From Candidatus Sifarchaeum marinoarchaea (lineage in GTDB: Archaea; Asgardarchaeota; Sifarchaeia; Borrarchaeales; Borrarchaeaceae): a stretch of 32,000 bases of DNA. Positions 1,700-29,404 of this stretch are shown in pieces. The stretch spans positions 1 to 32,000 of the forward strand of contig JAECRW010000003.1 of NCBI GenBank assembly GCA_016294985.1, in the 5' to 3' direction. Under the pieces are notes generated by a model. The model was given only the letters and a program-made list of their open reading frames with translations. It ran no database searches and was not told the DNA's origin. A program made the position numbers and the translations under genes. The number at the start of each line of letters is the position of its first letter. Position 1 is the first letter of the stretch.

Positions 1700-5526
<3,827 letters not shown>

Positions 5527-18746: not shown

Positions 18747-19457
18747 TCAAGACTTCTTAGCATGCCGCATTGCGTTTTTAACGGCAGCTTGAATCATATA
18801 ACCCGCCCTATGAAGAATAGTATCTCCAAGAACATTATCGATTGCCATACTGGCGGTACATGGATATGCATGGTGGTACTTGGAAATATCCTTTTCAACA
18901 TCAGAAATATGCTTCATTTTTAAATTCTCAATGACGTAATAACTTGATCCGCACGGAGCGCTTCGAAGAACTTTGCAGTCCTCTGTAAACAATTCATTTT
19001 CGATATCTACCTCTACAAGAGGCATGCCCATGCTAGAAAGTTCTATGAATTCATTGATTATGGGTGTGGTGTCATCTGGCTTCAAGCTACAAAAAGGCTT
19101 TGGGAAACTATATTCAACATTCATCTGCTCTAAATCTGGCTCTATTTGTTTCTGGAGGCCAAGCGGACACCAAGTTGGATCTTCAAGAGGGACTATAACC
19201 GCTTTTGCACCTGTTTTTTCTACAATTTGCGGTAAAGACGCAAGAATATCTTGATGAACACCTATGACGATTAAAAGGTCTGAATCGGGCATATTATCGG
19301 GGAGATATGGAGAGACGTCCTCTACAAATGAGGGTAGATCTTTTGATGATTCTTCTAAACCAATAATAGACGCCGCTAATAAAGGTGAATGAGTTGCTAG
19401 AGTCTCCACAAAACGATTTACGTATTCTCCATAGCTGTGAAGGACATAAATTCTCAA
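18747..19457 (-). CDS. Uncharacterised Cys-containing protein, DUF166-like
   Basis: 236 aa with a TTG start 7 nt after GGAGGG. Candidate conserved Cys contexts are WCPLG, PFCSL, APCGSS and YPCTASM. The family assignment is from memory only. Confidence 0.45.
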   Translation of the reverse strand: MRIYVLHSYGEYVNRFVETLATHSPLLAASIIGLEESSKDLPSFVEDVSPYLPDNMPDSDLLIVIGVHQDILASLPQIVEKTGAKAVIVPLEDPTWCPLGLQKQIEPDLEQMNVEYSFPKPFCSLKPDDTTPIINEFIELSSMGMPLVEVDIENELFTEDCKVLRSAPCGSSYYVIENLKMKHISDVEKDISKYHHAYPCTASMAIDNVLGDTILHRAGYMIQAAVKNAMRHAKKS

Positions 19458-19580
19458 GAATTTGCCCTCCTAAAAAATGATTCAATTTCAAATATGAGCG
19501 TTTGATTTGGATTAAGTTCAAAAATGCAAGAAAATAGAGTTTCAAGTTTCAGAATAAAACAAAAGATGTTATGGACTATT

Positions 19581-19748
19581 TTATTCTAACTCCTCAACTT
19601 CATTATATACCTCTTCACAAGTCAAACACTGGTAAAAAGTGCTCTTTTTTGTCTCGATCTCTTCAATCGTCTTATTACCACATTTTTTGCAAACAAAATC
19701 AGTTGGTCTTTTTGCCAAAATCCTTTGCATTCCAGCTTTTTTGCCCAT
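19581..19748 (-). CDS. Small zinc-ribbon protein
   Basis: The tracked ORF starts at TTG 19763. ATG 19748 sits 8 nt after GGAGG (19761-19757) and is preferred, giving 55 aa. It has CKKC-x19-CLTC and an acidic tail. TATA-like TTTATAT lies about 45 nt upstream. Confidence 0.5.
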   Translation of the reverse strand: MGKKAGMQRILAKRPTDFVCKKCGNKTIEEIETKKSTFYQCLTCEEVYNEVEELE

Positions 19749-19925
19749 GAATCTTGCCTCCAAATAACGCTTCTAAGGTTCTACCCTTGGATATAAACCA
19801 AATACGTTTTATTTTTGATTTACAATTAATCTACCGCGAAAATCAAGAATAAAAGGATTACGACATAGGCATAGCAAAAAACAAGTGCTAAACATAAAGA
19901 AAAACAGATGTGAAGGCAGCAAGTC

Positions 19926-22573: not shown

Positions 22574-23737
22574 ATGCGAAAGTGGAACAAATTTGCAGTC
22601 TTAATCCTCTCATGTATATTACTTTTCCAATTTGTATCTGTAACCGTAGCTCAAAGACAAACTGAGACTGTGAACGAGTACTATGAATATTCAGACTCAA
22701 ATGGATATCTTTGTAATCTTAGAGTAAGCTTATTTGGATTTCCAACAATTGAAAATCGAAAAGAAACATACACCGCCACATTAACCGTACAAAATCTTGC
22801 CTCAGATGTAGAAATAAGATTGAAAAGAATCAGTTGGGAAGTTGAAACTGACGATGATACTGAAGATGGTTCTGACGAAATTGACAATTCACTAAAAAAT
22901 ATTGGCGACTCATATGAGTTTCAATTCAATGTAAAGTCGATTTCCGATGAATATTCAGGTGATGCAACACTTACTGCCGAATTTAGGCACGACATTTATC
23001 GTGAAGGTAGTAAAAAAAAGCCTGATGAAAAGTCGTCCATCTCTGCTGATCTTGAGGTTTATGTAGTAGAGGAGGAAAACCCTAGTCCCACAAATCCCAG
23101 TGATGGGAATGGATTCTCTGGAAATACTCCGTCATTTAGAGCTATAAGTAACTTCTTGCCTGGATTAATAGTGCTCATTCTCATATTTGTAATAATAGGT
23201 GCCATTGCCCGAAAGAGGAAGCCCAGGCGTGAAAGCGCAATGATCCCTACAATAAGCACCACACAAATTGAAAGTTTGACTTATGATGAATTATTAGGAC
23301 GAAGAGAAGTTCTAGAAGAAGGATTAAGAAGAATTGAAACTCAATTGAATTCAGGTTTGCTCTCACCTCAACAATATATGGAGACTTATACAAAATATAG
23401 GTCTGAATGGATTAATGTGAACAGAAGGCTTTCTGAAGCGGGAATTAGTGTAAGTGATGATGAAAGTGAAATTGTGACACCCCCTTCAGTTGAAGATGTT
23501 GCATGTCCGTCCTGCGGTGTGCCTTATCCAAGCGAAACACTATTTTGTCCTAATTGTGGTGAAGAACGCGATAAATGTACTGTATGCTTATTACCAATGG
23601 AAGCTGGAAGTGTAATTACTAAGTGTCCACATTGCGGCGGGATTGCCCACAAAGATCATCTACAAGAATGGGTGAAAATAAAAGGATTTTGCCCAAAATG
23701 TAAAAATAAACTCACAGAATACGACCTAATTCAATGA
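22574..23737 (+). CDS. Type-I membrane protein with cytoplasmic zinc ribbon plus RING/PHD-like (C4H2C2) finger
   Basis: 387 aa. Signal-like N-terminus MRKWNKFAVLILSCILLFQFVSVTVAQ. TM helix FLPGLIVLILIFVIIGAIA (23153-23209) followed by RKRKPRR. CPSC-x10-CPNC starts at 23504. C-x2-C-x12-C-x2-C-x4-H-x2-H-x10-C-x2-C spans 23576-23701. Confidence 0.8.
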   Translation: MRKWNKFAVLILSCILLFQFVSVTVAQRQTETVNEYYEYSDSNGYLCNLRVSLFGFPTIENRKETYTATLTVQNLASDVEIRLKRISWEVETDDDTEDGSDEIDNSLKNIGDSYEFQFNVKSISDEYSGDATLTAEFRHDIYREGSKKKPDEKSSISADLEVYVVEEENPSPTNPSDGNGFSGNTPSFRAISNFLPGLIVLILIFVIIGAIARKRKPRRESAMIPTISTTQIESLTYDELLGRREVLEEGLRRIETQLNSGLLSPQQYMETYTKYRSEWINVNRRLSEAGISVSDDESEIVTPPSVEDVACPSCGVPYPSETLFCPNCGEERDKCTVCLLPMEAGSVITKCPHCGGIAHKDHLQEWVKIKGFCPKCKNKLTEYDLIQ

Positions 23738-23847: not shown

Positions 23848-24030
23848 TTATCTGTCTATATAAAGAGTGCCTGCTATGGCATAGTTTTCCTTAGGCATAT
23901 CATTAATAATGATTCGCACAGCGTCTTTGGGGCAGTCAAGTGCGTTAACGACAGCCTCTGTAACCATTTCGACTAGTTTGCGCTTTTTTTCTAAAGGTCT
24001 TTCGAACAAAGTGATTTGTAAGATTGGTAT
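23848..24030 (-). CDS. 4-oxalocrotonate tautomerase family protein
   Basis: PILQITLFERPLEKKRKLVEMVTEAVVNALDCPKDAVRIIINDMPKENYAIAG is a typical 4-OT sequence of ~60 aa. The tracked start is GTG 24039. I place the start at ATA 24030, directly before the catalytic-Pro codon (see finding). Confidence 0.8.
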   Translation of the reverse strand: MPILQITLFERPLEKKRKLVEMVTEAVVNALDCPKDAVRIIINDMPKENYAIAGTLYIDR

Positions 24031-24122
24031 TTTGATCACCTTCTAAAGTTTTCTTGATCTACCACTACTATAACCTCACTTTTAAAAACCAATACAGGTT
24101 CATAATGGAAAAAGGTGATTGA

Positions 24123-25274: not shown

Positions 25275-26255
25275 TGCAAATCGGTCAGTATGCCAATCGG
25301 ATTTTCGTGAGTGAGCAATTTTACCCTTTTTGCAGTATCCTTCGATTGTATCTCCTTGCAAATGCATTAACCGCTTTAGTATATTAATTACGGATCTTAC
25401 CTCAAAAGTATTTGCTGAAAAGCCTACTTGGTTGGAGATATATTTCCAAAGTTCTTCTTCTGATACTGCTATATTTTCGCATATTGTGGAGTTTTCAATT
25501 ATTTGAACAAATTGCGCAAGACGTTCAAATTTATCTAAGATTTTCAATGTTTTTTCGCCTTTCCCTGTGAGCTGATAATAGAGAACAAAAAAATCTTCTG
25601 GTAAAGGATTCGGTCCAGCCTTTACTACGACACCCCTTCTAGAAAGTTCTGAGAGGCGAGCTTGAACGCTTTTTTCGGCTAAACCAGTTATGTCGGCGAT
25701 TTCTTCGGCTGTCAATTTGAATTTTTCTGGATTTCCTTTAGTAAGGGCTTTTATAATTTCCGAATAATACGTAGGTAGTTTTTGCAAAGCAACTGTTGCT
25801 GTAGCATCTTTAATTTTGTATCTTATTCTTTCTGTTTGCACTATTTCTGCTTCTTTAAGTTGTCGCAACAGTATAGATGCAAATGTGCGTGAAACATCTA
25901 AGATTTTTTGCAACTGTTTGTTAGTTTTTGGTTCTCGGAGAGCGTTAATGCACTGTATTTTACCATTGACTTCCGAAATTTTCAACTTACCTAAAATAAC
26001 AACCGTTAAAACGCATATTGGTGTCGGTACACATGAATCGCCTGTTATTTCGACTAAATCTCGTCCTTGAAGTCTTAAAAGATATCTTGACAAAAATTTG
26101 CTACGGTATCGAGGAGCGTAATCAACAGTTTTCATAATGGTATCGATATCAGTGGTTCCATGCTTGTAGAGTCGATATAATACCTTTGCGCAAATATTAT
26201 TTCCCAGAGCTCGTATTGCTACTCCAGCAGAAACCAGAATAAGACCTCCTAGCAA
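25251..26255 (-). CDS. Protein with about four tandem winged-helix (MarR/ArsR-like) modules
   Basis: 334 aa. The repeated pattern is helix-turn-helix followed by a beta wing, e.g. TNKQLQKILDVSRTFASILLRQLKEAEIVQTE and LTAEEIADITGLAEKSVQARLSELSRRGVVVKAG. The start (TTG 26255) is uncertain. The 3' end overlaps the convergent aminotransferase gene by 24 nt. Confidence 0.6.
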   Translation of the reverse strand: MLGGLILVSAGVAIRALGNNICAKVLYRLYKHGTTDIDTIMKTVDYAPRYRSKFLSRYLLRLQGRDLVEITGDSCVPTPICVLTVVILGKLKISEVNGKIQCINALREPKTNKQLQKILDVSRTFASILLRQLKEAEIVQTERIRYKIKDATATVALQKLPTYYSEIIKALTKGNPEKFKLTAEEIADITGLAEKSVQARLSELSRRGVVVKAGPNPLPEDFFVLYYQLTGKGEKTLKILDKFERLAQFVQIIENSTICENIAVSEEELWKYISNQVGFSANTFEVRSVINILKRLMHLQGDTIEGYCKKGKIAHSRKSDWHTDRFASTLSEER

Positions 26256-28718: not shown

Positions 28719-29180
28719 TTAAAGGTTTTTGATGACGTCATCCTTGTCCATAACAATATGGCAGTAATAGCAGCGTATGCGAAGGGGTTCCTCACTTCTG
28801 ATTATAAAATGCGGTTCTACAGGTTCCTTCGTATTAGTGACGCAATTGGGATTAATACAACGTGGATAAGCTTTTACGGTCTTAGGAAGTTTCACTCTAT
28901 TTTTTTCTACAACTTTAAAGTCTCGAATGATGTTAATTGTTGCATTAGGAGCGATTAAAGCAATAATATCAACTTCCTGCGGCTCCAATTCACGATCTTC
29001 AATTTTTACGATATCTTTTCGGCCAGCTTTGCTACTTGGAACATTAATAGCAATGGAAATGGTGTTACCTTCCTTTCCAGATATACCACAAATTTTCAAG
29101 ACAGTTAAGGCATTTCCAGCGGGAATATGGTCAATCACTGTCCCATTACGTATCTTTCTAACTCTTAGTTCATCTTCTAT
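28719..29180 (-). CDS. pyrI: Aspartate carbamoyltransferase regulatory subunit
   Basis: Contains [15 protein letters not shown] and the C-terminal zinc domain CINPNC...CYYC. The tracked GTG at 29138 lies inside the conserved RNGTVIDH block. The frame is open upstream to ATA 29180, which sits 7 nt after GGAGG (29192-29188), giving 153 aa. Confidence 0.9.
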
Positions 29181-29404
29181 GGAAAGCCCTCCATATAGCT
29201 TGTCTTTTAGAGTTGATCATAATCTTCTCTTTAAAATGTTTTACTAATTTGTCGTAGATTTTTTCTCTTATCCATTATTAAACTAAGTCTTTTATCTATG
29301 ATATTAAATCCTAAGTTTTCGGAAATTAAAAATTAAAAAGATAAGACTATCAAAATAATTACAAAGAGAATTAATTATCACACATTCTTGAAGAGGCGAA
29401 AAAC

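Follow-up and report, generated by a model that had tools for sequence, protein, structure and literature searches.

Enzymes of the 4-oxalocrotonate tautomerase (4-OT) family use an N-terminal proline, Pro1, exposed by removal of the methionine, as the catalytic base. The window, by which we mean the whole 32,000-nucleotide stretch of DNA that was analyzed, carries on its minus strand a gene of this family in which the codon for that proline is preceded by ATA, raising the question of which codon starts its translation. At the 5' end of the gene the minus strand reads TAG AAG GTG ATC AAA ATA CCA ATC TTA CAA, with the in-frame TAG two codons 5' of GTG 24039, the start chosen by gene callers. 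The initial annotation proposed the ATA instead. The Pro1 rule, the ATG found at this codon in a related species, purifying selection on the gene, an orphan-SD test, and the pyrI and rpoA2 genes of the same window all agree with that proposal, and from these sequence comparisons we judge it highly likely that the tautomerase initiates at the ATA, as one case of a wider near-cognate habit. The features discussed are collected in Table 1.

Table 1. Coordinates of the tautomerase locus and of other candidate starts in the window
Feature	Position	Strand	Remarks
4-oxalocrotonate tautomerase family gene	23848..24030	-	60 codons counted from ATA, plus stop TAA at 23850-23848
Shine-Dalgarno (SD) motif GAAGGTGATC of the tautomerase gene	24034..24043	-	9 of 10 positions pair with the anti-SD
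ATA, proposed initiation codon	24028..24030	-	Immediately 5' of CCA
CCA (Pro) codon of the tautomerase	24027-24025	-	Aligns to Pro1
GTG chosen by gene callers, rejected as start	24037..24039	-	Within the SD
TTTTTAAA, TATA-box-like element, putative promoter	24081..24088	-	Conserved in genus orthologs
pyrI	29178..29192	-	SD GGAGG 29192-29188; candidate ATA start 29180-29178
rpoA2	4340..4356	+	SD AGGAGG 4340-4345; candidate ATA start 4354-4356, which shares bases with the rpoA1 stop codon TAG
Winged-helix gene	26235..26250	-	SD AGGAGGT 26250-26244; probable CTG start 26237-26235

Re-reading the sequence, we found the succession of SD, AAA, ATA, and CCA to be placed as first described, and the start of the divergent aminotransferase neighbor does read AAGGTGATT-GA-ATG. 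The product of the other neighbor (22574-23737, plus strand) is a membrane protein of 387 aa that has a zinc ribbon at its C terminus and a domain resembling a RING finger, the latter matching PF13639 at 26.9 bits, slightly below the cut-off of 27.3. The same tautomerase is carried by the Asgard archaea Candidatus Borrarchaeota, Borrarchaeum yapensis, and B. weybense. For comparison, we used four genomes of the same genus, Borrarchaeum (G001-G004, of which G003 is B. weybense), and one genome of a sister family (G005).

The 16S sequence of the MAG that contains the window (G000, in which the window is C195:1-32000; 1.81 Mb, 301 contigs, 38% G+C, 69% complete) lacks its 3' end, which falls at a contig end. 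Therefore, the 16S of G003 served as the anti-SD reference; it is complete and has the 3' end ...GGAUCACCUCCU. The SD motif of the tautomerase fits this anti-SD at all positions but one, confirming the near-perfect anti-16S match noted previously. The ATA lies 3 nt past the end of the SD register, and the canonical starts of G000 lie at 2-5 nt. About 55 nt 5' of the start, the TATA-like box is found at the same distance in all four genus orthologs. This conserved box leads us to predict a leadered mRNA with the SD inside the leader, which, given the usual archaeal distance from TATA box to transcription start, would be about 25-30 nt long. The promoter itself is a putative one, recognized by its TATA-like motif.

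The assignment of the gene to its family is clear. It matches PF01361 with an E value of 8.7e-17 and 61 bits against a Pfam cut-off of 22, and profile positions 1-56 correspond to residues 5-59 of the GTG-started ORF, so that profile position 1 falls on the proline. Read from this proline, residue 1 of the tautomerase coincides with residue 1 of the mature 4-OT chains 1otf, 1bjp, 4faz, and 4fdx. The Pseudomonas putida enzyme (1otf, 1bjp, 4ota) is likewise a monomer of about 60 residues, with which the tautomerase shares the proline aligning to Pro1. By count, and with a one-residue shift allowed, Arg-10, Arg-38, and Tyr-49 are candidate equivalents of the catalytic residues Arg-11, Arg-39, and Phe-50, and the sequence alignments agree with this. 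Compared with 4-OT, the protein is one residue shorter ahead of the first arginine (ER-P, where 4-OT has EGRS), and the proposed start codon of its gene is ATA.

We searched 400 Asgard genomes with PF01361 and recorded the codon 5' of the aligned proline. Among 65 4-OT loci outside the genus, this codon was ATG in 62 and TTG in 3; at six further Asgard loci ATG, TTG, and in one case CTG stood directly before the proline, and the 4-OT paralogs within the genus have ATG or TTG at this place. No residues ahead of the proline were found in any of the approximately 80 other Asgard 4-OT genes examined, so that a GTG-started MIKIP protein would be unique among them. As judged from these alignments, a start codon at position -1 of the proline is universal in this set, and the Pro1 rule makes this enzyme family an exceptionally clear natural marker of where translation truly starts. 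One locus from another Asgard family (G017:C1:457123-457299, in a 1.4-Mb genome) has CTG before Pro1, behind GGAGGTG; the congeners of this genome have TTG (G006) and ATG (G037) at that codon.

These data bear directly on the possibility that translation begins at GTG 24039 after all, yielding MIKIPILQ... with four residues ahead of the proline, which would then stand at position 5; a free Pro1 would be either unneeded or produced by protease trimming. The GTG is the sole canonical start in the open frame, 3 codons 5' of the ATA, it is conserved in G001 and G004, and public pipelines call the corresponding 63-aa form. However, no SD precedes it, and the TATA-like box is about 44 nt away, a misfit for a leaderless mRNA. 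The position of the GTG within the SD, noted previously and borne out here, accounts for its presence as an SD component: in G003 the same motif, AAGGTGAT, is out of frame and cannot be coding because an in-frame TGA lies inside it. Together with the lack of any comparable extension in other Asgard 4-OT genes and the sequence alignment of Pro1 and of the candidate arginine and aromatic positions with solved 4-OTs, these observations make a GTG start improbable.

The initial annotation had expected standard gene callers to mis-start a gene of this kind. Public collections do contain the 63-aa GTG-started product (MIKIP...), from which we conclude that pipelines have mis-started the tautomerase. 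An entry in NCBI nr (P0009, 60 aa) is identical to the 4-OT of the window except that it starts with MP, which means either that the ATA is already taken as the start by some pipeline or that there is a variant with ATG. The two starts predict different N-terminal peptides, PILQITLFER from the ATA and MIKIPILQITLFER from the GTG.

We then compared the start region among relatives. Both G001 and G004 have an identical gaaggtgatcaaa-ATA-CCA, and the G003 ortholog reads aaaggtgattagac-ATG-CCG, with ATG in place of ATA. In JGI metagenomes, a degenerate pattern matched five contigs of different sample origin; the codon is ATA in four of them and ATG in one (Ga0180437). The 16-nt stretch from the SD to the ATA is invariant across three species genomes and four metagenome contigs, an identity greater than chance, because the synonymous divergence of the gene reaches a pS of 0.61. 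This value comes from the comparison of G000 with G004, both of which bear ATA (pN 0.04, dN/dS 0.03). Among the ATA-bearing orthologs, dN/dS is 0.03-0.04 and frameshifts and stops are absent, indicating that the tautomerase has been kept under purifying selection while carrying ATA. Such values at this synonymous divergence argue that the gene is expressed and functional.

The same comparison speaks against the idea that a start-loss mutation turned ATG into ATA and left the gene silent or decaying. A single mutation does separate the ATA from the ATG of G003, and a paralogous 4-OT in G003 and G004 could compensate for the loss. Nevertheless, the strong constraint between ATA-bearing species, the perfect conservation of the SD and its spacing, and the finding that many intact, essential genes of the genus also have ATA, ATT, or CTG at an SD-defined start (see below) render this scenario very unlikely. 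Still less credible, to the point of being negligible, is that the ATA arose from faulty sequencing or assembly or has been reassigned to methionine in the lineage. An error might be suspected in a single MAG as fragmented and incomplete as this one, but three species-level genomes and four separate metagenome assemblies share the ATA; the initial annotation had counted an error, or ATG in close relatives together with a lack of other ATA cases, as grounds for abandoning its claim.

Reassignment was assessed at 2372 internal ATA sites, where outgroup proteins have isoleucine (0.39), valine (0.20), leucine (0.15), and methionine (0.03). Because this profile is the same as that of ATT and ATC, we conclude that ATA has not been reassigned to methionine and reject this explanation. 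The initial annotation also suggested inspecting the initiator tRNA for peculiarities, and none was found: the single tRNA-Met of G000, with a CAU anticodon, A1:U72, and an anticodon stem containing three G:C pairs, is by its sequence features a standard archaeal initiator. Its gene (G000:C124:2174-2264) is interrupted by a 13-nt intron beside the anticodon loop. In the whole MAG, no more than four tRNA genes are detectable by ARAGORN, and almost none without intron mode. In B. weybense, contig G003:C1 has dense tRNA clusters (107-253, 19436-19895, 74513-74748, and 161784-161928); the contamination estimate of this genome is 8%, and the contig may be foreign or viral.

How, then, would an AUA codon be used? 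In the model we favor, the SD in the leader of the tautomerase mRNA would pair with the 3' end of 16S rRNA and set the AUA in the P site, where the ordinary initiator Met-tRNA (CAU) would read it as a near-cognate codon with a third-position mismatch. The product would be Met-Pro-Ile-Leu..., from which methionine aminopeptidase would presumably strip the methionine, exposing Pro1. Output from the AUA would probably be below that from an AUG, a deficit that the long SD might partly offset.

The initial annotation listed two further SD-ATA cases in the window, pyrI and rpoA2, and both exist. In PyrI, counted from the ATA, profile position 1 of PF01948 falls at residue 5, and a start at the tracked GTG (residue 15) would cut the domain. 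The codon is ATA in G000, G002, G003, and G004, and GTG in G001. For rpoA2, there is an in-frame TGA at 4348, and the ATA is unchanged in five genus genomes, with the first canonical codon shifting between codons 7, 10, and about 14; the G005 gene has a longer N terminus and starts with ATG. This case is weaker than pyrI because its ATA overlaps the conserved rpoA1 stop codon. In B. weybense, the rpoA2 frame (G003:C5:211074-213848) is 925 codons long, compared with 390 aa for RpoA2 of the window, and an open frame of about 1.5 kb splits the RpoA2 match, suggesting an intein or other in-frame insertion.

A fourth candidate in the window, found in the present analysis, is a 334-aa multi-winged-helix gene. 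Its listed TTG (26255) lies 5' of the SD, and the G003 ortholog has the same AGGAGGT-N6-CTG arrangement with no canonical start upstream. Translation of this gene probably starts at the CTG given in Table 1.

To place these loci in a genomic context, we scored triplets that were preceded by an SD run of 6 nt or more, opened a frame of 80 codons or more, and had an in-frame stop no more than 15 codons upstream. Triplets were discarded if a canonical start lay upstream of them, among the 10 codons that follow, or, in any frame, close to the SD. Behind such orphan SDs of G000, ATA, ATT, ATC, or CTG made up 14 of 34 triplets at spacers of 2-5 nt, and at control spacers their share was 7 of 83 (p 8e-5). 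In a stricter first version of the test the shares were 14 of 29 and 1 of 38 (p 9e-6), and in 400 kb of G003 they were 7 of 16 and 1 of 27 (p 0.002). The genome-wide count against background that accompanied the original proposal thus came out in its favor in G000 and in the sampled part of G003. The second-position neighbors ACG, AAG, and AGG showed no enrichment in the test on G000.

Set against canonical SD-led starts, the near-cognate loci number 14 versus 201 in G000 (7%) and 6 versus 45 in G003. About 5-10% of SD-led genes in Borrarchaeum, core genes included, appear to have a near-cognate start. The matched SD run in G000 is longer at near-cognate than at canonical starts (mean 6.93 versus 6.31, p 4e-4), a difference that is not significant in G003. 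A stop codon, considered as a possible signature of coupling, lies directly upstream of 4 of 14 near-cognate and 24 of 201 canonical starts (raw counts). These data uphold the proposed use of AUA as a start codon in this lineage but not its restriction to ATA, as ATT, CTG, and perhaps ATC appear to be used too.

Further evidence was provided by the position of Pfam domains relative to the proposed start and the next canonical start. In the ACD gene, the CoA-binding domain begins at residue 9 from the proposed ATT, and the next canonical start is codon 31. Three genes with a proposed CTG start have their domains at residue 8 (FAD_binding_2 in SdhA-like), 11 (Rossmann in HdrA-like), and 3 (Fer4-like in Tsr3), the next canonical starts being codons 32, 47, and 56, respectively. 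The zinc ribbon of TFB begins at residue 18 from an ATT (next canonical start at codon 26) and the MTS domain of the Mtq2-like protein at residue 26 from an ATA (codon 57). Along with PyrI, described above, the set includes a FYVE protein with an ATA start, in which the FYVE domain begins at residue 12 and no canonical start occurs within the first 60 codons. This last ORF (G000:C88:4765-5070) encodes a FYVE zinc finger in 101 codons, its ATA lying behind GGAGGTGA, which directly follows an in-frame TGA; it is probably missed or truncated by standard gene callers.

Comparison of orthologs shows the codons at these positions exchanging between the near-cognate and canonical sets. For ACD, the ATT of G000 is replaced by ATA in three species and by GTG, with TGA directly upstream, in G001. 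The SdhA-like gene has ATG in G002, where three species have CTG. The ATT of TFB and the ATA of the Mtq2-like gene are retained in G003.

The same orphan-SD test was applied to 400-kb samples of three other Asgard lineages. In G006, a 1.4-Mb single-contig genome from another Asgard family, it identified three ATA loci, among them a HIT-domain gene that would otherwise be cut at codon 47. One ATA locus was found in G016, a ThiF gene with its domain from residue 19 and the next canonical start at codon 38, and one CTG locus in G040, a HEPN gene with its domain from residue 9 and the next canonical start at codon 40; a second locus of G040, with ATC, has no domain to back it. Near-cognate starts relate to canonical ones as 20/246 in Borrarchaeum and as 6/133 in the three outgroups, a difference that is not significant (p 0.29). 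With cases in three other lineages and no significant difference in rate, the trait is not genus-specific. Hence the lineage in question does have the habit ascribed to it in the initial annotation, but ATA or CTG starts with domain support are not confined to it. The use of ATA, ATT, CTG, and occasionally ATC at SD-defined starts would then be a general habit of Borrarchaeum, with at least three other Asgard lineages behaving similarly.

We found no systematic report of near-cognate starts at this scale in the searchable literature, only a single-gene remark. A review of archaeal translation gives AUG, GUG, and UUG as the only start codons (PMC7531240), and ribosome profiling of Haloferax detected alternative sites at near-cognate codons, which were left out of consideration (PMC7261190). 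The single-gene remark concerns AtubA of Kariarchaeaceae, for which a 'likely rare ATT start codon' was noted (Sci Adv 2026, PMC13394414). The likeness to our cases is considerable, because a conserved N-terminal strand lies 5' of the annotated start and the ATT is at a plausible RBS distance. Unlike our analysis, it is a remark made in the course of cloning, without genome-wide or evolutionary analysis, and it comes from a different Asgard class.

The practical consequences lie in annotation. Gene finders, like most pipelines, recognize no starts other than ATG, GTG, and TTG. Because of this rule, the N termini of about one SD-led gene in fifteen in this genus, core genes among them, would be truncated or misplaced, with truncations that delete Rossmann motifs or zinc ribbons or, as in the tautomerase, a misplacement that buries the catalytic Pro1. 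Structure predictions, expression constructs, and comparative studies of the Asgard 'eukaryotic signature' proteins would all be affected, and one published Asgard tubulin has already needed a start correction (PMC13394414).

Near-cognate initiation is best known from bacteria. In E. coli, infC and pcnB have AUU starts, NCBI table 11 includes ATA, ATT, ATC, and CTG as starts, and in bacteria at large near-cognate starts occur in a handful of genes per genome. The likeness to Borrarchaeum extends to SD-directed positioning, an ordinary initiator tRNA, codons one base from AUG, and the same four codons. The differences are in extent, as here some 5-10% of SD-led genes appear to be involved, including rpoA2, TFB, pyrI, TrpRS, and possibly aIF1, and in the fidelity factors, which are the archaeal aIF1 and aIF2 and not IF3. 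A measurement of all 64 codons in E. coli placed ATA, ATT, ATC, and CTG in a second tier at 1-2% of AUG (bioRxiv 10.1101/063800). Eukaryotic near-cognate initiation (CUG, AUU, and AUA among others) likewise uses Met-tRNAi and is policed by eIF1 and eIF5. In eukaryotes, the start is selected by scanning and Kozak context, whereas in Borrarchaeum its position is set by the SD.

A missing aIF1, the homolog of eIF1/SUI1, was considered as the cause of the near-cognate starts. The gene was not assembled in G000; we rejected this explanation, as aIF1 is present in all four congeners. In these genomes, the SD-defined codon of aIF1 (SUI1), behind AAGGTGA with a spacer of 3-5 nt, is ATA in G003 and G004, CTG in G002, and TTG in G001. 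Four codons farther on there is an ATG, at too great a distance from the SD and yet a possible start, so that the near-cognate start of aIF1 is suggestive only. At that same strength, the arrangement hints that aIF1 might itself depend on near-cognate initiation, in an infC-like autoregulatory arrangement.

More broadly, we entertain as a tentative reading, about which we are nearly evenly divided but lean toward doubt, that SD-led initiation in Asgard archaea has a relaxed stringency, with AUA, AUU, and CUG as regular primary starts for several percent of genes, aIF1 maybe included. Such a set would span the genes of RNA polymerase, TFB, and a tRNA synthetase. If this is true, aIF1 behind a near-cognate codon would form an infC/eIF1-like autoregulatory loop, current Asgard proteomes would contain hundreds of mis-called N termini, and near-cognate initiation would be older than eukaryotes. 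A relaxed stringency in the closest archaeal relatives of eukaryotes would also bear on the evolution of eukaryotic start selection. As to the factor itself, the aIF1 proteins of G001-G004 are without the N-terminal Cys knuckle that is found in G006.
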